31,647 nucleotides of DNA from Gemmatimonadota bacterium. GTDB taxonomy: Bacteria > Gemmatimonadota > Gemmatimonadetes > Palauibacterales > Palauibacteraceae. Positions 10,311-25,263 of the stretch are shown here, one piece after another (position 1 is the stretch's first letter; every line of letters begins with the position of its first letter). The translations under genes and the position numbers were made by a program. The stretch lies in NCBI GenBank assembly GCA_046758745.1, contig JBHIAV010000033.1, positions 1 to 31,647 of the forward strand, written 5' to 3'. Under the pieces are notes generated by a model. It worked only from the letters and a program-made list of their open reading frames with translations. It was not told the DNA's origin and ran no database searches.

Positions 10311-11072
10311 ATGAAGTCGAATAGCGCGTTTCTCGCGGCGGCAGCGTTCTTCGCGTTCTCCCTCTCCGGATGCGGGGGGTCCGACCTCACCGTCCAGGTC
10401 CTACAGGAGGGAGCGCAGGGAGCAGCCACCGGGGTGAAGAACCACGTCGTCTTCTTCATCCCTTTCGACCGCGACTCGCTGTTCGAAGCGCTCGCGGCGC
10501 AGGCTCCCGAGCCGGAGCCGAGGATCCCGGACGACCTGCTCGAAGCGTTCGACCGAATCAGCAACCTACAGGAGGAATGGCGGCAGGCGGATGCGGCGTG
10601 GGCCGAGGTCCGGGACTCGCTGCAGCGACTCTCCGACCGGCTCCGCGGCATGGATCGCCGCAGCCGGCAGTACTTGCAGCTCTTCCGGCGATTCACCGCT
10701 CTGGAGGGTCGGGAGCGCCAGTTGAACCGGCAGAAGCAGCGGGCCTTCGACGCGTTCGACAACCTCCAGAAAGCCGCTCTCACGCGGGCCGATTCCGTTC
10801 GCGCCGTGATCGAATCATGGGAGGATGTAGCTTTCGCTGACTATTCGGACATCGAGGCGGATCTCCTCGAGGCGATGGAGCGGGAGATCTACCAGGACAC
10901 GACCGATGCCGACGGCTACGTGACGCGGCGTCTTCCGGGGGGCGCCTGGTACGTGCACTCGAGGTTGCCGATCCCCTCCGGCGAGCTGTACTGGAACGTT
11001 CGGGTGGACCCGCGTCAGGTCGACACGCTTCGACTGTCGCGCGACAACGGAGAGCCTCGTCCCCGCCTGTGA
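10311..11072 (+). CDS. Hypothetical lipoprotein with central coiled coil
   Basis: Signal MKSNSAFLAAAAFFAFSLSG-C (lipobox); SD GGAG; helical heptad middle; beta-rich C-terminus. Confidence 0.8.
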   Translation: MKSNSAFLAAAAFFAFSLSGCGGSDLTVQVLQEGAQGAATGVKNHVVFFIPFDRDSLFEALAAQAPEPEPRIPDDLLEAFDRISNLQEEWRQADAAWAEVRDSLQRLSDRLRGMDRRSRQYLQLFRRFTALEGRERQLNRQKQRAFDAFDNLQKAALTRADSVRAVIESWEDVAFADYSDIEADLLEAMEREIYQDTTDADGYVTRRLPGGAWYVHSRLPIPSGELYWNVRVDPRQVDTLRLSRDNGEPRPRL

Positions 11073-11110
11073 CGGCGGCGAAGGCGAGCCCCTCCCCTCA
11101 CACTCATCCC

Positions 11111-13273
11111 ATGGACACTCCGCCGCGGACGGAGGCGAAGGCCTTCACCCTAGAGGTCGACCGGAACGAGGTCGCGTGGGTGACCTTCGACCAGCCGGAG
11201 TCGAAGGCCAATCTGCTCTCCTCCGCGACGATGGCCCAGCTCGACCGGCTCCTGTCGGAGCTCGAGTCGAGGATCGCGACCGGTCGCCTCGTGGCCGTGG
11301 TCATCCGGAGCGGGAAGGCCGGACACTTCATCGCGGGGGCCGACGTCCACGAGATCGCGCACCTACGTGACGCCGAGGAAGCCCGGGCCAAGAGCCGCGA
11401 GGGACAGCGGATCTTCCGGCGGCTGGAGCGCCTGCGCGTCCCCACGGTCGCCGCCGTGGATGGGATCTGCGTGGGTGGGGGAACGGAGCTCATCCTAGCC
11501 TGCGGATTTCGCCTCGCCTCGAATCGCGGCTCCACCCGGATCGGCCTCCCCGAGGTGCGCCTCGGGATCCTCCCCGGCTTCGGCGGAAGCGTCCGGCTGC
11601 CCCGCCTCGTCGGGCTGCGTCACGCGCTCGACCTCATCCTGAGCGGGAAGACGATCAGCGCGCAGCGGGCCCTTCGCATCGGGCTGGTGGACCGAGTCGC
11701 CGACCACACCCGCTTCGAGGAAGAGGTGGAGAGCTTCCTGGCCGATGTGCTCTCGGGCGCGCAGCGGCCCGGCGGGAGACGGAGATCCGTCCTCCAGCGA
11801 CTGGTCGAGAGGAGCGCCCTGGGTCGCCGCTTCCTCTTCTCGACGGCCCGGCGGCGCATCGCAGCGCGGTCGGCCGGACACTACCCCGCCCCGCTTCGCG
11901 CCCTGGAGATGATCGAGGAGACGTGCAGCATGTCGCCGGACGCGGCGTTCGAGGTCGAGGCGCGCACCCTCGGCGAGCTGGCGGCCGGAGAGGTATCGCG
12001 CGGCCTGGTGCGCGTCTTCCTCATCTCGCAGGCCGCCCGCCGGGCCCTCCCCATGGAGCAGCTCGATGCGGGAAGGCCGGTGCGGCGGGCCGCGGTGCTC
12101 GGCGCCGGAGTCATGGGCGGCGCCATCGCCGAAGTCGTGGCGGCGACCGATGTCCACGTGGTGTTGAAGGACATCGATCGCATCCCGCTCGATTCCGGCC
12201 TCCGTCACGCGAAGAGCCTGCTGACCCGAGCGGCCAAGAAGCGCGTCTTCACGCCCGAGGAGGCGAAGCGCAAGTTCGAGCTGATCGAGGGCACCCTCTC
12301 GTACGACGGATTCGACGACGTCGATCTGATCGTCGAGGCGGTGGTGGAGCGCATGCCGGTCAAGCAGCAGGTACTGCGGGAGGTCGAGGAGAGGGTGAGC
12401 GAGGCCGCCGTCTTCGCCACGAACACCTCGTCCCTCTCGGTCACCGAGCTCGCCTCGGCTGCCCGGCGCCCGGAGCGGGTGGTCGGCCTCCACTTCTTCA
12501 ACCCCGTCCACAAGATGCCGTTGGTCGAGGTCATCAGGACAGACCAGACCTCCCCCGAGGCGCTCGCCACGGCGTTCAACTTCGTCCTGGCGCTCGGCAA
12601 GACGCCCGTGATCGTGGCGGACCGCCCGGGCTTCCTGGTGAACCGTCTGCTGGCGCCATACCTCAACGAGGCGGGACACCTGGTCAGAGAGGGAAACGGA
12701 GTCGGGGAGATCGACGGCGCGTTCAAAGAGTTCGGCATGCCGATGGGGCCGCTACGGCTGCTCGACGAGATCGGATTCGACATCGCCGAGCATGCCAGCC
12801 GCGAGATGGCGGCGAGCCTGGGCGATCGGGCCCGGCCCTCCGAGGTCGTTCGCAGACTCCGCCAGGACGGCCGGCTCGGAAGAAAAAACGGTCGAGGCTT
12901 CTACCGGTACGAGCGGGGGCGCGAGAAGGAGGTGGACCCGGCGGTCGAGCGCATGTACCCGCGGGACGCCGCGGGCGCCTCGACTCCGGAGGAGATGCGC
13001 CGGCGCTGCCTGTACCTCATGGTCAACGAGGCGGCGTACGCCCTCTCCGAAGCGGTGGTCGCCTCCGCCGACGAGATCGATCTCGCCATGGTCATGGGAA
13101 CGGGGTTCCCGCCCTTCCGGGGTGGACTCCTTCGGTGGGCGGACCAGGAGGGAATCCGCCGGATCGCAGAGGCGCTCGCCGAGCTTGCGGAGCGAATCGA
13201 TCGTCGTTTCATCCCCGCACCGCTGCTCGTTTCGATGGCCGAGCACGGACACACCTTCACGCGTCCGTTCTGA
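11111..13273 (+). CDS. fadJ: Multifunctional fatty-acid oxidation enzyme alpha subunit (enoyl-CoA hydratase plus 3-hydroxyacyl-CoA dehydrogenase)
   Basis: FIAGAD, GGGTE, GLPEVRLG (crotonase); GAGVMG, EAVVE, TNTSSL, HFFNP, GFLVNR (HACDH); alternative GTG start at 11069 overlaps the upstream stop. Confidence 0.9.
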   Translation: MDTPPRTEAKAFTLEVDRNEVAWVTFDQPESKANLLSSATMAQLDRLLSELESRIATGRLVAVVIRSGKAGHFIAGADVHEIAHLRDAEEARAKSREGQRIFRRLERLRVPTVAAVDGICVGGGTELILACGFRLASNRGSTRIGLPEVRLGILPGFGGSVRLPRLVGLRHALDLILSGKTISAQRALRIGLVDRVADHTRFEEEVESFLADVLSGAQRPGGRRRSVLQRLVERSALGRRFLFSTARRRIAARSAGHYPAPLRALEMIEETCSMSPDAAFEVEARTLGELAAGEVSRGLVRVFLISQAARRALPMEQLDAGRPVRRAAVLGAGVMGGAIAEVVAATDVHVVLKDIDRIPLDSGLRHAKSLLTRAAKKRVFTPEEAKRKFELIEGTLSYDGFDDVDLIVEAVVERMPVKQQVLREVEERVSEAAVFATNTSSLSVTELASAARRPERVVGLHFFNPVHKMPLVEVIRTDQTSPEALATAFNFVLALGKTPVIVADRPGFLVNRLLAPYLNEAGHLVREGNGVGEIDGAFKEFGMPMGPLRLLDEIGFDIAEHASREMAASLGDRARPSEVVRRLRQDGRLGRKNGRGFYRYERGREKEVDPAVERMYPRDAAGASTPEEMRRRCLYLMVNEAAYALSEAVVASADEIDLAMVMGTGFPPFRGGLLRWADQEGIRRIAEALAELAERIDRRFIPAPLLVSMAEHGHTFTRPF

Positions 13274-18910: not shown

Positions 18911-19143
18911 GGAAGACCTCCGATTCGGAGTTCGAGACGGCGGCGCGCCCGCCGCGGCGGACGACCGTGAGGTGCCAAGCTCGCTCGAAACGAGACTATC
19001 CGTACGTCGCTCCGGCAAGCTACGCGACGGACGGATCAGGTCGCTATCATGATCCGGATCGCAGATTCGGCAGTCTGGACAGGGTGCGGCCCGGGCCTTC
19101 GCCCCCGGGTCCCGGAAGATCCACAAGCCGGAGGTCGGTAGCC

Positions 19144-19596
19144 ATGAGCGTCGAGGTACGGGCTGCGGTGCCAAAGGACCGGGACCGGATCGCTCTCTTC
19201 AACCAGGCGCTGGCGCGGGAGACGGAGGGGCGGGAGCTCGACCGGAAGACGCTGCTCAGGGGGGTGGAGGCCGTTCTCGGTGATCCCGCGCGGGGCCGCT
19301 ACCTGGTGGCGGAGAAGGACGGGGAGGTGGTGGGTCAGCTGGCCATCACGTACGAGTGGAGCGACTGGCGCAACGGCCGGGTGTGGTGGATCCAGAGCGT
19401 CTACGTCTCGCGACACCATCGAAGGGAAGGGGTCTACTCCGCCCTCCACCGGTACGTGCGGGAGCTCGCTCGCGCGGAGAAGGCGGTGGGGCTCCGCCTG
19501 TACACGGAGCGGGACAACGAGCCGGCCCATCGGGCCTATCGGGCTCTGGGGATGTCGGAGTCCAGCTACGTGATGTACGAGGAGATGTGGGGGTGA
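19144..19596 (+). CDS. GNAT-family N-acetyltransferase
   Basis: SD GGAGG; TYEWSDWRNG, WIQSVYV, RREGVY (motif A), LRLY and N-x-x-A-x-x-x-Y-x-x-LG. Confidence 0.92.
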   Translation: MSVEVRAAVPKDRDRIALFNQALARETEGRELDRKTLLRGVEAVLGDPARGRYLVAEKDGEVVGQLAITYEWSDWRNGRVWWIQSVYVSRHHRREGVYSALHRYVRELARAEKAVGLRLYTERDNEPAHRAYRALGMSESSYVMYEEMWG

Positions 19597-19666
19597 GCCG
19601 GCGTGCATGCCCGCCCGATGGGTCCACGCTGCGCCACCCGCGCCCGGAGCTGTCGGCGAGCTGCGC

Positions 19667-19837
19667 TCATCCGCGCCGCCACTTCATGTACTCGAACACC
19701 GTCCGGCAGCGGCGGCAGTAGTACTGGCTGGTCGACAGGGCGGAGCCGAAAGCGGCGAACTGCTCCGTGTCGAAATTGCTGCAGAAGGGGCAGCGCGCCC
19801 GTTCCGGAAGCGCTCCGGACCGGAGGGTTTCGTCCAT
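19667..19837 (-). CDS. Stand-alone PaaD-type zinc beta-ribbon protein
   Basis: CPFC-x(4)-TE...FGS...YYCRRCRTVFEYMK matches the C-terminal ribbon of PaaD; start could be as far upstream as 19966. Confidence 0.8.
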   Translation of the reverse strand: MDETLRSGALPERARCPFCSNFDTEQFAAFGSALSTSQYYCRRCRTVFEYMKWRRG

Positions 19838-19981
19838 CCCATCGGAGTCGTGACCCTCGCCGGAGGCGGCCGGAGTGCTCTTGCCGGCCCTATCCGGGGC
19901 ACTCTTCCCGGGCCCTTCCGGGGCTCCCGTCCCGCTTCCTTCCGGATCCCCATCGCCGCGCAACACAGGCCGCCCTCGCCC

Positions 19982-20824
19982 CTAGTCGAGGAGCAGCGCT
20001 CGGTTCCGGTCGCCGCGCACCCGGGCGAGGGTGTCCGGATCCGGACCGCCCCCTTCCGACCTGCGTCGCCGCTCGGCGCTCCAATCCTTCCAGGAGGGTT
20101 CCGCCCGGCTCTTCCAGGCGCCGTTCTCCCGAACGGCGAGCTCGAGACCCGCGGACCCCACCACCGGCCCTACCTTGCCGAGCCACCGGGCGCGCAGAGC
20201 GTCGGGGCCCGCCGTCATGACGCCGACCTCGGCGAGGGCCACGCCGAGCGCATCGTCGGAGGGACCGAACCAGCGCAGACAGGCCTCCCAAGCGGGCTGG
20301 AAGGCCACGCGGAGCGCCTCTCGTCCCCTCTCGCTGGACGCGAGACGGATCGTCCACCCGCGCCCGTGTTCGAAGTGGAACCGCTCCTCGTCGAGCAGCT
20401 TGCGCACCTTGTAGTGGAGCGGCTCGAAGCGACTCTCCTCCATCGACTCGAACACGACGGTCAGGGCGCTGTCCACCAGAAGGTTGAGGGCGAGAAGCTC
20501 CGGCCACTCGCCGATCGGGGAGTCGAGCAGCTCGATGTTCCGATACTCCGAGGCCTCGCGCTCGTGCTCCAACCGGTCGGGATCGTGCCCGAAGTCCCTG
20601 AGCATGGCGTACAGGATGCGGCCGTGTCCCCACTCGTCCTGCGCCATGGCGGAGCAGGAGATCCCCGCCTCCAGAGCCGGAGCTCCGAGGATCCAGTCCG
20701 AGTAGCGGAGGCCGAGGAGCCGCTTGTTGTCGGCGAGGGTGAGCAGCAGGTCCGCGAGCGGCTTCCTGACCTCGTCGGGGAGCTCGAGGGCCGACTTGAA
20801 GCTGCGAGCGTGTCCGTCGGTCAT
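19982..20824 (-). CDS. paaC: PaaC-like ferritin-fold subunit of an aryl-CoA epoxidase-type di-iron oxygenase
   Basis: LAD-x-x-x-x-LG-x-RYSDW-x-x-GAPALE, QDEWGH and EERFH; operon context. Confidence 0.85.
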   Translation of the reverse strand: MTDGHARSFKSALELPDEVRKPLADLLLTLADNKRLLGLRYSDWILGAPALEAGISCSAMAQDEWGHGRILYAMLRDFGHDPDRLEHEREASEYRNIELLDSPIGEWPELLALNLLVDSALTVVFESMEESRFEPLHYKVRKLLDEERFHFEHGRGWTIRLASSERGREALRVAFQPAWEACLRWFGPSDDALGVALAEVGVMTAGPDALRARWLGKVGPVVGSAGLELAVRENGAWKSRAEPSWKDWSAERRRRSEGGGPDPDTLARVRGDRNRALLLD

Positions 20825-20882
20825 GTGGAAGTTGGCCGAGCTCTCCGTGCCGACGTCGGGCCCTGCGGCGTTGTCAGGTCCT

Positions 20883-21191
20883 TCACGCGAACGGCGTCCC
20901 GTACCCGGGCGGCGGCTCGGTGTCGGCGCTGGATCCCTCACCCACCGGCGGCGGGCCGCCCAGTGTGAAGGGCGCTTCCTGCCGATTCACCTGGAAGAAG
21001 GCATCGCGCGGCGCGACGGCCATCTCGAACCACTTCTGCTCATCGTACGTCTGCCAGGCGTAAACACGGGCGAGCTCCCGGCTCGGTGCCTGCACCGTGC
21101 CGATGTGCTGAAAGCGATCCGCCCGATCCTTGCGCGCGAACACCTCGAAGATCCGGTCCTCCACCTCCAGAGGACTGACTTTCCCCCTCAT
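20883..21191 (-). CDS. paaB: PaaB-like small subunit
   Basis: FEVFAR...HIGTVQAP...A...Y motif of the PaaB family; lies between the DUF59 and PaaC-like genes. Confidence 0.8.
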   Translation of the reverse strand: MRGKVSPLEVEDRIFEVFARKDRADRFQHIGTVQAPSRELARVYAWQTYDEQKWFEMAVAPRDAFFQVNRQEAPFTLGGPPPVGEGSSADTEPPPGYGTPFA

Positions 21192-21207
21192 CTCGAAGCC
21201 ATCGCCC

Positions 21208-21681
21208 TCACACCGACACCCCGACGCGTCCGAGGATCTCACGCCCGCGATCGGTGATCCGCTCCGTGGTCCACGGAGGGTCCCAGGTCACCTCGATGAG
21301 GACTCGCTCGACCCCCGGCTCTCTCAGGAGGCGCTCCCGTACGTCCCAGCGGATGAAGTCCATGCACGGACAGGCGGTAGCGGTGAACGAGAGGCGCACC
21401 GTGACCTCGCCCCTCTCCTCGTCCGCCTCCACGCCGTACACGAGGCCGAGATCGACGAGAGAGATGGGGAATTCCGGGTCCGACACCTCGTAGAGCGCCC
21501 GGTGCGCTCGCTCCGCCAGGTCGCCCGGCGGCGCGTCGAACTGCGGGGGTGGCGGGATGTCCCCCCGTCGGCCCTGCGTGGCCCGAAGCACCGCCGCGAA
21601 GTTCATCCCCTCCTCGTAGCGGGGCCGGCGTATCTCTTCGCTCGCTCCGTTACCCTCTCGCCTCAGCCGGACGAGGGTCAT
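21208..21681 (-). CDS. paaD: DUF59 / FeS-assembly-P (PaaD N-terminal-like) metal-sulfur cluster maturation protein
   Basis: V-x-DPEFPISLVDLGLVY, T-x-x-ACP and WDPPWT; ATG overlaps the paaA stop (ATGA); alternative start 21606 with SD GAGGAGG; no Zn ribbon. Confidence 0.85.
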   Translation of the reverse strand: MTLVRLRREGNGASEEIRRPRYEEGMNFAAVLRATQGRRGDIPPPPQFDAPPGDLAERAHRALYEVSDPEFPISLVDLGLVYGVEADEERGEVTVRLSFTATACPCMDFIRWDVRERLLREPGVERVLIEVTWDPPWTTERITDRGREILGRVGVSV

Positions 21682-22616
21682 GCGGCCAGCATCCTCTCGA
21701 CGCTGAAGCGGCTCTTCCGAACCGACTCCACGTACCGCTGGTTCATCGGACCCCGGCCCTTCCAACGTGCGAACACCTCCTCCCAGGTGATCGGCTCGTC
21801 GAACAGCCACCGCCGCTCATCCGGGTCGTACTGGCAGGGGAGCTCGTACTCGAGTTCCACCTCCTCCGTCTCCGGGTTCACGCGCGCCGGAACCTTGTAG
21901 CCGAGCTCGTCGCACAGAGGGACGACCGCCTTGAGCCATGTCTGCCGAAGCTGGTCGTTCGTCATCCCCTTCAGCTTGAACTCGAGCTGCGCGTTGTGCC
22001 GCTTCTTATCGTCCGGCATCCCGAACCATTCGACGCCCATCGGGAACATCCAGTCGAGCGCCCGCTGCACCGTCTCCTTGGCCGCGCCGCCGGCCTCGGC
22101 GAAGCGCCGCATCCACACCTCTCCGTGCCGGAGGTGGAAGTTCTCCTCCATGTCCACCTTCACGAGAGCCCGCTTCAGCGGCCCGTAGCTCGTGTTCCGG
22201 TAGACATCGCCGAGCAGGGTGATCCCGGCCCTGTCGTACAGCCCGTTCGCAGCAATCAGCTCGGCCCAGTTCTCCAGAGGCTGGTCGAAGCCGTACGGGT
22301 GCTTGAACTTGCGCGGTTCCCGTTCGTAGAGGAGCCAGTGCCGGTCGATCCCGAGGTCCTCGAGGAGCCGGTAGGCGATGTTCGCGTGTCCCAGCTCGTC
22401 CTGGATGATGGCCGTCGCCGAGACCATCGTGTTCGTGGAGGGGGCGTCGCGGGCCGCCATGAAGTAGGCCGGCGCGCTGATGAGCTCCGTGTCCCCCTGA
22501 ACGGTGAGCTGCGTGATGAGCGCTTTCTTGTAGCTCTCGGTCATGTCGGCTTCGGACTCCACGATGAAGCCTTCATGGACCTTGCGCTGCAGCTCATCGT
22601 CGGTGAAACGCGCCAT
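21678..22616 (-). CDS. paaA: PaaA-like catalytic di-iron subunit (1,2-phenylacetyl-CoA epoxidase family)
   Basis: QGDTE, APS, QDELGH, YD, TSYGP, EENFH, WMFP-x-x-x-x-WFG and NDQLRQ; SD GGAGG/AAGGA. Confidence 0.88.
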   Translation of the reverse strand: MARFTDDELQRKVHEGFIVESEADMTESYKKALITQLTVQGDTELISAPAYFMAARDAPSTNTMVSATAIIQDELGHANIAYRLLEDLGIDRHWLLYEREPRKFKHPYGFDQPLENWAELIAANGLYDRAGITLLGDVYRNTSYGPLKRALVKVDMEENFHLRHGEVWMRRFAEAGGAAKETVQRALDWMFPMGVEWFGMPDDKKRHNAQLEFKLKGMTNDQLRQTWLKAVVPLCDELGYKVPARVNPETEEVELEYELPCQYDPDERRWLFDEPITWEEVFARWKGRGPMNQRYVESVRKSRFSVERMLAA

Positions 22617-22649
22617 ACGTCCTTCCCTCCGTTCGACTCGGGGGGGCGG

Positions 22650-22677
22650 AATCTAGCCGGATCCCGCCGGGCGGCAA
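22650..22677 (-). promoter_or_regulatory. Candidate sigma70 promoter for the Paa-like operon
   Basis: TTGCCG (22677-22672), 16-bp spacer, TAGATT (22655-22650), about 35 nt upstream of the paaA ATG. Confidence 0.4.
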
Positions 22678-22741
22678 AACGGCGCCGGAGCCGGTCCAGC
22701 CTGCGCCACCATGAGCCCGGCGGGAGCGCGCCCGGCTCCGC

Positions 22742-24499
22742 CTAGTCGGCCGCCAGGAACGGATATCGATAATCCCTCGGCGGGGCGAAGGTCTCCTTGA
22801 TGGCCCGCGGCGACACCCAACGGAGCAGGTTGAGGATCGACCCCGCCTTGTCGTTGGTTCCGCTCGCCCGGCCGCCGCCGAACGGCTGTTTTCCGACGAC
22901 GGCCCCGGTCGGTTTGTCGTTGATGTAGAAGTTTCCGGCCGCATGGCGGAGGGCGGAGGCCGCCTGCCGGATCGCGCCTCCCTCCCGAGCGAATACGGCG
23001 CCCGTGAGGGCGTAGGGCGAAGTCGCGTCTACCAGCGCCAGCGTCTCCTCCCACCTCTTCTCCGGATAGACGTGGACGGTGACCACCGGCCCGAAGATCT
23101 CCTCGCACATCAGCCGGTGACCGGGATCCTGGGCGAGCACCACGGTCGGATCGATGAAGTATCCCACCTCGTCGGAGAAGCCGCCGCCGAAGACGATCTC
23201 GGTCTCCGCCGATTGCCGAGCGTGCTCGATATAGCCGGTGATCGAGTCGAACGCGCTCCGGTCGATCACGGCGGCCATGAAGTTCTGGAAATCCGCCGGA
23301 TCCCCGACGCGGATCTCCGACAGCATCTCGCCTACCCGGTCCCGCACCTCAGGCCACAGGTTGGCCGGCACGTACACCCGCGAGGCCGCGCTGCACTTTT
23401 GCCCCTGGTACTCGAAGGCTCCCCGCACGACCGCCACGGCGAGCGCCTGCGGGTCGGCCGAGGCGTGGGCGACGATGAAATCCTTTCCGCCCGTCTCGCC
23501 GACCACGCGGGGATAGGAGCGGTAGTCGGAAAGGTTCTCGGCCACCTGGCGCCACAGGAGCTGGAAGGTGGCGGTGGAGCCGGTGAAGTGGATCCCGGCC
23601 AGCTCGGGGCTGGCGAGAAGCACCTCGCTCATCGCCGCGGAGTCGCCGGGCACGAAGTTGATGACGCCGGGGGGAAGGCCGGCCTCCTCCAGGACGCGCA
23701 TGATGTAGTAGGAGCTCAGGATGGCGGTCGTCGCGGGCTTCCAGATGGAGACGTTGCCCATGATGGCGGGCGAGGTCGGGAGGTTCCCGCCGATGGAGGT
23801 GAAGTTGAACGGGGTGATCGCGTACACGAACCCCTCCAGCGGACGGTGGTCGAGCTGGTTCCACTGCCCGGGGGCCGACTCCGGCTGCTCTTCGTACAGC
23901 CGACTCGCGAAGTGGACGTTGAAACGCCAGAAATCGATGAGCTCGCAGGCGGCGTCGATCTCCGCCTGATGGACCGTCTTGCTCTGCCCGAGCATGGTTG
24001 CGGCGTTGAGCGTCGCTCTCCAGGGGCCCGCGAGGAGCTCGGCTGCCCGCAGGAAGACGGCCGCCCGGTCTTCCCAGCTCCACGCCGACCACTCCCGCCA
24101 GGCCTCACGCGCCGCTTCGATCGCGGCGTGCGTCTCCTCCGTTCCCGCCCGGTGGGCCCGAGCGAGGATGTGGCCATGGTCATGCGGCATCACCACGTCC
24201 ACGCGCTGGCCGGTTCGCACCTCCTCACCGCCGATGATGAGGGGAATCTCGATCTCCTCGGCACTCATCCCCTGAAGCGTCGTTCGGATCTCCGCGCGCT
24301 CCGGAGAGCCCGGCACGTACCCCAGCACGGGCTCGTTTGCGGGGGGAGGAGGACGGAGATGCGCCGCCCGCGGCGCGATCGTGCCCTCCCTGCCGGCCAC
24401 CGCGCCGCCCTCTCCGCCCCGTGCCGGGGCGCGGGCCGGGCGGGCCTCGGACGTCGGGGTCGGTGCGGGACCGGGCGGCGTGACCGTCTTGCTGCTCAT
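22742..24499 (-). CDS. pruA: L-glutamate gamma-semialdehyde (delta-1-pyrroline-5-carboxylate) dehydrogenase
   Basis: NEPV, QAEIDAACELIDF, TPFNF, FTGS, catalytic ETGGK and GQKCSA, EEIFGP, YINDKPTGAVVG; SD AAGGAGG; low-complexity N-terminal extension. Confidence 0.95.
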   Translation of the reverse strand: MSSKTVTPPGPAPTPTSEARPARAPARGGEGGAVAGREGTIAPRAAHLRPPPPANEPVLGYVPGSPERAEIRTTLQGMSAEEIEIPLIIGGEEVRTGQRVDVVMPHDHGHILARAHRAGTEETHAAIEAAREAWREWSAWSWEDRAAVFLRAAELLAGPWRATLNAATMLGQSKTVHQAEIDAACELIDFWRFNVHFASRLYEEQPESAPGQWNQLDHRPLEGFVYAITPFNFTSIGGNLPTSPAIMGNVSIWKPATTAILSSYYIMRVLEEAGLPPGVINFVPGDSAAMSEVLLASPELAGIHFTGSTATFQLLWRQVAENLSDYRSYPRVVGETGGKDFIVAHASADPQALAVAVVRGAFEYQGQKCSAASRVYVPANLWPEVRDRVGEMLSEIRVGDPADFQNFMAAVIDRSAFDSITGYIEHARQSAETEIVFGGGFSDEVGYFIDPTVVLAQDPGHRLMCEEIFGPVVTVHVYPEKRWEETLALVDATSPYALTGAVFAREGGAIRQAASALRHAAGNFYINDKPTGAVVGKQPFGGGRASGTNDKAGSILNLLRWVSPRAIKETFAPPRDYRYPFLAAD

Positions 24500-24708
24500 C
24501 TCCCCCTCCTTCGAAGAACGGACCTGCCGTGAGCCTCAGGGTGCGGCACGGTTTTCGCTGGGCAGCGCGCCGGCGCGCCCGAGGCCGCCGGAACCTTCGG
24601 CCACCTCCGGACCGTTTCCCCCTGGGCTGCGTACCGGGCTGTCCGGCGCGAATCGGCTTGACCCGGGTATGGGATCCTATTCACCTATCGACATGAAGGC
24701 TACTCTCG

Positions 24709-25263
24709 ATGGCTGACGAGTTCGACTACCGAAGGTACTGGAAAGCCGGCCTTTCCTGGAACGAATTCCGCTCCGGCGGGATCCGCAAGAACCGCGAGCT
24801 GTGGGAAGGCGTGTACCGCAAGACGCGCATTCCTGACTGGGCCGTGGAGCGCATGACGGAGCTGGGGGTCCACGTCCGGCTGCTCGTCATCGCCGAGGAC
24901 TGGTGCGGCGACGCTGCCAACACCGTACCGCTGTTCGTGCGGTTCTCCGAAGCGGTCCCGGGGCTGGAGCTCCGGATCGTCAAGCGGGATGAGCATCCCG
25001 AGCTCATGGATCGCCACCTCACGAACGGGTCGCGGTCCATCCCGATCGTGATCGCGCTCGACGCGAGCGACGAGCCCATGGCCGTGTGGGGCCCGCGACC
25101 CGCGGAGCTCCAGAAGTTCGTGATCGGCGAGAAGCAGGCCGGCTCGCGCCCGACGGGCGACATCTACCGGGACGCGCGCCGGTGGTACGCGAGGGACCGC
25201 GGAGAGACGACGCTGCGGGAGTTCCTGGATTGCATAGCGGCCCCCGTGGCGACGGGAGGCTGA
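24709..25263 (+). CDS. Thioredoxin-family protein (Thioredoxin_9-like)
   Basis: EDWCGDA, LTNGSRSIP and WGPRP motifs. Confidence 0.9.
   Translation: MADEFDYRRYWKAGLSWNEFRSGGIRKNRELWEGVYRKTRIPDWAVERMTELGVHVRLLVIAEDWCGDAANTVPLFVRFSEAVPGLELRIVKRDEHPELMDRHLTNGSRSIPIVIALDASDEPMAVWGPRPAELQKFVIGEKQAGSRPTGDIYRDARRWYARDRGETTLREFLDCIAAPVATGG

Follow-up and report, generated by a model that had tools for sequence, protein, structure and literature searches.

The closest described relative of the locus reported here is the PaaABC(D)E complex of Escherichia coli, Pseudomonas and Klebsiella (PDB 3PW1, 4IIT), which in E. coli acts as a phenylacetyl-coenzyme A (CoA) 1,2-epoxidase. In the accessible portion of PMC4498308, the di-iron ligands of E. 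coli PaaA are given as E42, E72, H75, D126, E155 and H158, together with a lysine bridge of K68 with E49, E72 and D126, and with Phe108 and Lys103 as residues that orient the phenylacetyl group and gate the pocket. The constancy of paaABCD is noted in an excerpt of PMC2653477. This study concerns a five-gene cassette resembling paaABCD in a Gemmatimonadota bacterium. It lies on a stretch of 31,647 nucleotides (nt), hereafter the window, which comprises positions 1 to 31,647 of contig JBHIAV010000033.1 (C33 in our numbering) of assembly GCA_046758745.1 (3.08 Mb, 130 contigs, 87.4% complete). The names of its nearest database proteins point to Gemmatimonadota, close to Candidatus Palauibacterales.

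The cassette shares with the canonical complex the superfamily of its A and C subunits (PF05138), the six A ligands, the PaaB fold, a DUF59 domain with a PaaD-type zinc (Zn) ribbon, and similar types of downstream enzyme. It differs in that its A subunit is about 30% identical, its scores are below the canonical cut-offs, A belongs to a sister clade and lacks the lysine bridge, C keeps five of the six ligand positions, PaaD is split and interleaved with B and C, and neither PaaE nor PaaK was found with the system. The paaABCD cluster of Haloferax mediterranei plasmid pHME505 likewise has a split PaaD, with a Zn-ribbon of 55 amino acids (aa) named 'paaE', and no ferredoxin-NADP reductase (FNR)-type PaaE, but its order is A-B-C-D-ribbon, two PaaK genes and PaaI are linked to it, and its A and C belong to the canonical clade. 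Of the same type and order as the window's cassette, and also without a reductase gene, are the Thermus thermophilus 'paaA_2/paaC_2' cluster and those of Haloterrigena, Haloarcula, Haladaptatus and Halobaculum. These lie inside catabolic islands (CoA ligases or transferases, crotonases, aldehyde dehydrogenase (ALDH), thiolase), whereas the window's cassette lies apart from its partners; the haloarchaeal clusters also have genes for a GNAT and a 2Fe-2S ferredoxin next to them, and Thermus has two tandem PaaB-like open reading frames (ORFs). BoxAB likewise uses a di-iron centre to epoxidise an aromatic CoA ester, and its product passes to a ring hydrolase of crotonase type, to an ALDH and on to steps resembling beta-oxidation, but BoxAB belongs to another protein family and has a dedicated reductase, BoxA.

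The five genes are probably the oxygenase module of a Paa-like system for aromatic-CoA ring cleavage, with the pathway split over two loci. The cassette is an ordinary member of a widespread, little-studied variant of a known system, and is not an orphan. This variant is here called type II, a working name and not a published family, for interleaved clusters with a split PaaD and no reductase. The name denotes the order A-DUF59-B-C-Zn-ribbon, an A subunit in the clade described below, a hydrophobic residue for K68, and a C subunit with Lys followed by E, H, D, E and H at the ligand positions, all of which were found in the window. The cassette consists of five co-oriented minus-strand ORFs running from 22616 down to 19667. 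The preliminary description, made from the sequence, had given their order as PaaA-like, DUF59, PaaB-like, PaaC-like and Zn-ribbon, and this was borne out by the ORF calls and Pfam, as was the ATGA overlap of the DUF59 ATG with the PaaA TGA. The features are as follows.

21678..22616, minus strand: PaaA-like catalytic di-iron subunit (A), 312 aa; PF05138, 197.5 bits
21208..21681, minus strand: DUF59 protein, N-terminal half of the split PaaD, 157 aa; PF01883, 49.4 bits
20883..21191, minus strand: PaaB-like bridging subunit (B), 102 aa; PF06243, 23.3-23.9 bits, cut-off 27
19982..20824, minus strand: PaaC-like second ferritin-like subunit (C), 280 aa; PF05138, 159.8 bits
19667..19837, minus strand: free Zn-ribbon, C-terminal half of the split PaaD, 56 aa from ATG; PF23451 Zn_ribbon_PaaD, 53.1 bits
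22617..22741, minus strand: gap of 125 nt 5' of PaaA, after the co-oriented P5C (L-glutamate gamma-semialdehyde) dehydrogenase gene

Both A and C exceeded the PF05138 gathering cut-off of 28.5 bits. An alternative GTG start at 19966 would extend the Zn-ribbon protein from 56 to 99 aa. The best PDB match of A was E. coli PaaA (3PVR_A, E 2e-27, full length, ~30% identity). The subunits had been described as divergent, and this agrees with the scores against the canonical NCBIfam equivalogs (TIGR02156-TIGR02159), which were under the cut-off for A (127.9 bits against 280, TIGR02156), B (21.3 against 85.45), C (116 against 133.35, TIGR02158) and D (60.4 against 108.15, TIGR02159). The haloarchaeal models NF041867-NF041869 (PaaB, PaaD and 'PaaE') gave 28.5, 90.2 and 29.3 bits against cut-offs of 150, 180 and 100. 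For B, comparison of a 37-sequence alignment with E. coli PaaB by hhalign gave a probability of 92.7% (E 4.4e-7). The three best PDB matches of the AlphaFold model of B (predicted local distance difference test score 76.7) were the PaaB chains 3EGR_B, 3EGR_A and 4IIT_B, with target template modelling scores of 0.76-0.78 and E-values of 2e-3 to 7e-3 (none <= 0.001), and the next match had an E-value of 0.42. The predicted PaaB identity of B is supported by this profile comparison and fold match. Because positions 1-89 of the 146 positions of TIGR02159 match the DUF59 protein and positions 100-144 match the Zn-ribbon, these two genes represent the two halves of PaaD. The DUF59 motif T-A-x-A-C-P-C and the four Cys of the Zn-ribbon were invariant in 37 aligned sequences each, and a complex prediction for the DUF59 domain and the Zn-ribbon (37-row alignment each) reached 0.08 where the mark is 0.32, which speaks neither for nor against a complex.

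Species-representative genomes were scanned for related loci, with 549 relatives confirmed; the locus figures given here refer to the best 80, of which 76 have titles naming Gemmatimonadota taxa. The six di-iron ligands are present in the window's A (E44, E74, H77, D128, E158 and H161) and were kept in all 80 related loci. The equivalents of E. coli Phe108 and Lys103 were also conserved in 80/80 Gemmatimonadota loci. Both residues and the six ligands are likewise features of the type II A subunits as a group. At the lysine-bridge sites the window's A has I70 for K68 and Y51 for E49. K68 was found in none of the 26 type II rows versus all 18 core canonical rows; the type II residue was hydrophobic or small in every row (26/26), and E49 was replaced by Tyr in 18 of them. 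In the type II C subunit the first ligand position is Lys, followed by E, H, D, E and H, so that five of the six are kept. The ligands are lost in E. coli PaaC, where the residues are C, L, Q, D, A and H. This C pattern was observed in 76 of the 80 aligned rows. The other four have Glu first, and we take them to be matches to the A gene in loci cut by contig ends.

A quick LG+G4 tree of 62 rows was rooted on the C subunits, which formed one clade (Shimodaira-Hasegawa-like approximate likelihood ratio test, SH-aLRT, 99). The A subunits were resolved into a canonical clade of 19 rows (SH-aLRT 99), including PaaA of E. coli and of Haloferax mediterranei, and a deep sister clade, type II, of 28 rows (SH-aLRT 98). 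The latter held the window's A, all other Gemmatimonadota sequences, the Thermus plasmid copy, four interleaved haloarchaeal sequences, and the Agrobacterium and Bacillota representatives. The 62 rows do not include the PaaA of the Thermus chromosome (TTHA0972) or the PaaK-linked clusters of Bacillota. The earlier suggestion of an uncharacterised sister clade is thus upheld, as both A and C lie outside the canonical clades. Outside the phylum, A identity in a plasmid collection was 54% for the Thermus thermophilus plasmid 'paaA_2', 52-55% for the haloarchaeal megaplasmids (54% in three of four genera), with Halobaculum at 45.6%, 38% for an Agrobacterium plasmid and 31% for canonical proteobacterial PaaA. 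Cluster look-ups added a Dormibacteraeota metagenome-assembled genome (48%), Bacillus (44%) and Paenibacillus (39%).

Among the relatives, A orthologs with 73-90% identity and one C were present in 33 of 41 genomes. A survey of 301 Gemmatimonadota genomes, nearly all at least 90% complete, found A in 94, with 23/23 genomes in family f1, 43/49 in f6, 5/6 in f5, 15/125 in f3 and 0/71 in f4. The phylum tallies for A, the PaaG-like gene and the ligase discussed below each include one unpublished genome (G137, G196 and G221), which adds one to each count. Since presence by family is patchy, the cassette is an accessory trait of some lineages and not a core one; the idea of a core housekeeping gene was dropped after this survey.

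The order A-DUF59-B-C-Zn-ribbon is fixed in the whole type II clade. It was complete in 75 of the 80 loci, four others being cut by contig ends and one (L066) being without a DUF59 match. All seven plasmid loci opened (two Thermus, four haloarchaeal and one Agrobacterium) had A-DUF59-B-C. A Zn-ribbon ORF after C was annotated in two plasmid loci and was found by translation in Haloterrigena, one Thermus and Agrobacterium, in a check that left out the Haladaptatus locus and the second Thermus locus. The operon had been called rearranged in the preliminary description, which does not hold for an order shared by all clade members examined. Three variations around this order were also seen. In 4/80 loci (L019:10936-11928, L020, L025 and L027) an extra same-strand gene of ~330 aa lies between PaaA and DUF59, with a signal-peptide-like start and a weak match to SMP-30/gluconolactonase-like beta-propellers (PF08450, 24.2 bits against 26.3). 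In 13 Longimicrobiales-type loci (e.g. L092:12368-13315) the Zn-ribbon gene is followed on its own strand by an ORF of ~315 aa that matched neither Pfam nor NCBIfam, and which may be spurious or may encode an additional partner. The tandem PaaB-like ORFs of the Thermus type II cluster (pTF24b, L104:16247-16629) are of 64 and 60 aa and had no Pfam match at E <= 0.01.

The cassette had been described as an orphan with no reductase or pathway genes. This is correct for the window, in which no paaE, paaK, paaG, paaZ or paaX was found. It is not correct for the genome. Besides the window's genome, as many as 11 others, eight of which were single chromosomes, were covered by the equivalog searches; two (G028 and G044) have identical coordinates and are probably one genome. 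No PaaK equivalog (TIGR02155, cut-off 646 bits) was detected, the best scores being 44 bits in the window's genome and 112 in the 11 others, and no PaaZ equivalog (TIGR02278, best 129 bits against 563); PaaG was under the equivalog cut-off in 5/5 genomes. The genome search for canonical genes therefore came out negative for the PaaE (see below), PaaK, PaaZ and PaaG equivalogs, but a Paa-type lower cluster was found, unlinked to the cassette and in two parts, at the end of contig C49 and the start of contig C42. The thiolase of this cluster has T. thermophilus PaaJ (1ULQ) as its best PDB match (505.7 bits versus 434 for the next). One crotonase has PaaG as its best NCBIfam match (243.8 bits, cut-off 345), a PaaF-like crotonase scored 275.5 bits (cut-off 371), and the opening part of C42 encodes an ALDH and one more crotonase. 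In G019 and G028 the cluster is unbroken and reads crotonase, ALDH, thiolase, PaaG-like, opposite-strand ORF and PaaF-like, and an ALDH, thiolase (66-69% identity) and crotonase cluster is kept in three Longimicrobiales chromosomes (G046-G048). By type, these enzymes would suit the steps after epoxidation, namely an isomerase, a hydrolase and a dehydrogenase replacing PaaZ, a thiolase and a hydratase.

In family f3, three genomes (G083, G101 and G215) have this cluster immediately after the Zn-ribbon gene, in the order TetR, cassette, crotonase, ALDH, thiolase (where detected), PaaG-like and then an opposite-strand ORF. All genes but this ORF are on the same strand, and the proteins are 59-72% identical to the copies of the window's genome. 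TetR was upstream of A in all three, and the thiolase and the PaaF-like crotonase were each detected in two of the three. As the cassette and the lower cluster are directly adjacent and on the same strand, they form one operon in f3. Of the 15 cassette-bearing f3 genomes, 13 carry a PaaG-like gene on the contig and strand of A, ~4-6 kb away. In the window's family the cassette and the lower cluster are split over two loci. Two further genes touch on this pathway. A FadB-like fused enoyl-CoA hydratase/3-hydroxyacyl-CoA dehydrogenase of ~810 aa is encoded in the window itself at 10841-13273 (plus strand), and could be a candidate for the missing PaaH-type dehydrogenase step. Contig C42 (L101, 6652-11940, minus strand) also carries fatty acyl-AMP ligase-like, type III polyketide synthase-like (DpgA model, 176.6 against 425 bits) and RtcB-family genes in a row.

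No match over the cut-off of the PaaE reductase model (TIGR02160) was found in 5/5 and 8/8 genomes (the window's and 11 further ones), and no FNR-type reductase gene was found beside any type II cassette opened. Because no PaaE equivalog is present in these genomes, the electron donor is probably not PaaE, in line with the earlier proposal of a non-PaaE donor. All four haloarchaeal cassettes have a GNAT gene and a gene for a 2Fe-2S ferredoxin as neighbours. The window's genome has a plant-type [2Fe-2S] ferredoxin on contig C78 (TIGR02008, 92.8 bits against 81.15) that is 41% identical to the Haloterrigena ferredoxin, and we infer that it may feed the oxygenase. On C78 (L100, 6834-8139, plus strand) this ferredoxin gene follows a DPS-like ferritin gene (NF040955, 292 bits against 250).

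In the mechanism proposed here for the type II system, A would epoxidise the ring of an aromatic acyl-CoA at its di-iron site. C would pair with A, and B would bridge A-C dimers as in PDB 4IIT. The DUF59 protein and the Zn-ribbon may jointly replace PaaD as a maturation factor, and electrons would come from a free [2Fe-2S] ferredoxin and a general reductase rather than from PaaE. The epoxide would then be processed by the unlinked cluster, with the PaaG-like isomerase, the crotonase and ALDH taking over the job of PaaZ, the PaaJ-type thiolase and the PaaF-like hydratase.

Several observations weigh against this proposal. None of the lower-pathway proteins reaches its equivalog cut-off, and the crotonase and ALDH families are generic ones. 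The lower cluster occurs without A in both genomes of genus g7, and in family f4 the PaaG-like gene was found in 11/71 genomes versus 0/71 for A. Family f6 shows the converse, with A in 43/49 genomes and a close PaaG-like ortholog (E <= 1e-85) in 0/49. Profiling of the cassette against the PaaG-like gene or the benzoate-CoA ligase gave no clean co-distribution across the phylum, and no activating ligase tracks the cassette. In addition, the window's genome is 87.4% complete, and literature searches found no assay of any type II enzyme.

As regards the substrate, phenylacetyl-CoA is a serious, if tentative, candidate. The system would then be a plain phenylacetyl-CoA 1,2-epoxidase in phenylalanine or phenylacetate catabolism, with a PaaK-independent supply of phenylacetyl-CoA, such as the oxidative decarboxylation of phenylpyruvate. 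The best family matches are all to Paa models, the residues that orient the phenylacetyl group are kept in 80/80 loci, and the partner set (PaaG-like, crotonase and ALDH, PaaJ-type thiolase, PaaF-like) is the Paa lower-pathway complement. TetR lies upstream in 3/3 of the f3 loci, as does PaaR in Thermus according to the accessible part of PMC6651687, and a class IV aminotransferase gene lies near the operon in two of these loci. However, the PaaK equivalog is missing from the window's genome and the 11 others (best score 112 against 646 bits), and the lysine bridge of the core canonical rows (K68, 18/18) is absent from the type II rows (0/26). The one haloarchaeal PaaK-bearing cluster examined, that of Haloferax mediterranei, is of the canonical clade with the order A-B-C-D-Zn-ribbon, and no PaaK was found within 10-15 kb of the four interleaved haloarchaeal loci or of the Thermus plasmid locus. 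The Thermus chromosome carries a canonical PaaK-linked cluster, as described in the same portion of PMC6651687. The haloarchaea (Haloferax and others) and Thermus thus each contain both types, which suggests that the two types have different jobs and are not redundant.

A benzoyl-type CoA ester as substrate is possible, though doubtful. The enzyme would then be an epoxidase or hydroxylase of benzoyl-CoA or ring-substituted benzoyl-CoA, a Paa-type functional analogue of BoxAB. Among the products of the Thermus plasmid island are a member of the benzoate-CoA ligase family (TIGR02262, 587.9 bits against 375.25), a thiolase and a PaaY-like protein, as well as crotonases and ALDHs. The Haloterrigena ligase has the same model as its best match, at 370.7 bits just under the cut-off; the ligase adjoining the Halobaculum locus, however, is not of the TIGR02262 family. 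UbiD-family decarboxylases are encoded in three of the four haloarchaeal loci, and two-subunit CoA-transferases in two of those three, a pairing that we take to resemble the conversion of phthaloyl-CoA to benzoyl-CoA. A TIGR02262 member over the cut-off was found in 8/11 Gemmatimonadota genomes, and a benzoate-CoA ligase family member in 111/301 genomes of the phylum. No BoxB (TIGR03225) was detected at E <= 0.001 in 5/5 genomes, including that of the window. On the other hand, the best TIGR02262 score in the window's genome is 208 bits, short of the cut-off, the model describes a broad subfamily, and the ligase is uncoupled from the cassette (55/125 versus 15/125 genomes in f3, and 21/49 versus 43/49 in f6). 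Any other acyl-CoA substrate takes up what probability phenylacetyl-CoA and the benzoyl-type esters leave.

A more specific form of the benzoyl proposal, in which type II is a third, unrecognised CoA-dependent aerobic system of ring attack on (substituted) benzoyl-CoA, independent of BoxAB, driven by a free [2Fe-2S] ferredoxin and with a working or half-occupied metal site in C, is unlikely. That the cassette is an orphan in the literal sense, a di-iron oxygenase acting by itself outside catabolism or on non-aromatic compounds (for example by modifying a lipid, a cofactor or another acyl-CoA), is very unlikely: the housekeeping flanks in the window's family and in the Longimicrobiales-type loci (P5C dehydrogenase, PBP1A, GyrA, pyridoxal phosphate (PLP) decarboxylase) and the high conservation of A (64-90% identity across the phylum) would agree with it, but the patchy, accessory-like distribution (94/301; f4 0/71), the same-strand linkage in f3 to a beta-oxidation-like ring-cleavage set with TetR upstream, and the position of all relatives examined outside the phylum in CoA-ester catabolic islands argue against it.

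Some ligase arrangements were recorded separately. In G015 (L109:4589-9091) and G019 (L108) a gene for a creatininase/MftE-like hydrolase clusters with one of the benzoate-CoA ligase family. The G015 cluster also has a short-chain dehydrogenase/reductase and a crotonase over the PRK08258 cut-off (355.7 against 330), and a crotonase lies nearby in G019. In several genomes of genus g16 a benzoate-CoA ligase family gene lies ~50-60 kb from the cassette.

Upstream of PaaA, the stretch GGAGGGAAGG precedes the ATG within the 125-nt gap. The preliminary description had assigned the cassette a candidate promoter of its own, which was not recovered: a consensus scan of 19300-24800 returned no sigma-70-like sites and no terminators, promoters of other than sigma-70 type being outside its reach. 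On the other side of the gap lies the P5C dehydrogenase gene (22742-24499, minus strand; TIGR01236, 811 bits against 613.6), whose product has a Pro/Ala-rich N-terminal extension of ~50 residues and which is the upstream neighbour in 29/80 related loci. The other flanks of the cassette in the window are housekeeping genes, and in more distant orders the cassette is flanked by other housekeeping genes. A GNAT acetyltransferase gene (19129-19596, plus strand) is convergent with the Zn-ribbon gene, ~70 nt from its stop codon. The similarity of this GNAT to those of the haloarchaeal loci is weak (34% over 85 aa, E 1e-4), the latter being 54% identical to each other, and given this weak similarity GNAT as a conserved cassette partner was set aside as probably a coincidence. 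The window's stretch occurs in four DNA runs, all from a single study and labelled hydrothermal vent metagenome, and two of them may be its source; no RNA runs holding it were among the sequencing runs listed.

No publication on the type II clade, on a PaaD split in this way or on a benzoyl-CoA epoxidase of Paa type came up in literature searches. In databases, type II genes are labelled 'phenylacetic acid catabolic protein'. A 2026 survey anchored on PaaK (PMC13186573) uses PaaA-PaaC, in the portion available, as markers of phenylacetate degradation; there, contexts with PaaA-PaaC only in Bacilli, Clostridia, Deinococci and Halobacteria are termed 'partial multicomponent', and no second clade is separated. 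The interest of the locus lies in the type II clade as such and in its substrate. If type II is a plain phenylacetyl-CoA epoxidase, it would be an ordinary, already annotated module with an unusual gene order. If it acts on another aryl-CoA, phenylacetate catabolism would be called too often from PaaA-PaaC markers in Gemmatimonadota, Thermus, haloarchaea and some Bacillota, and an aerobic benzoyl-type route would so far have been missed. The type II systems are natural experiments, with a PaaA without the lysine bridge, a PaaC with ligand positions, a PaaD in two domains and no dedicated reductase.

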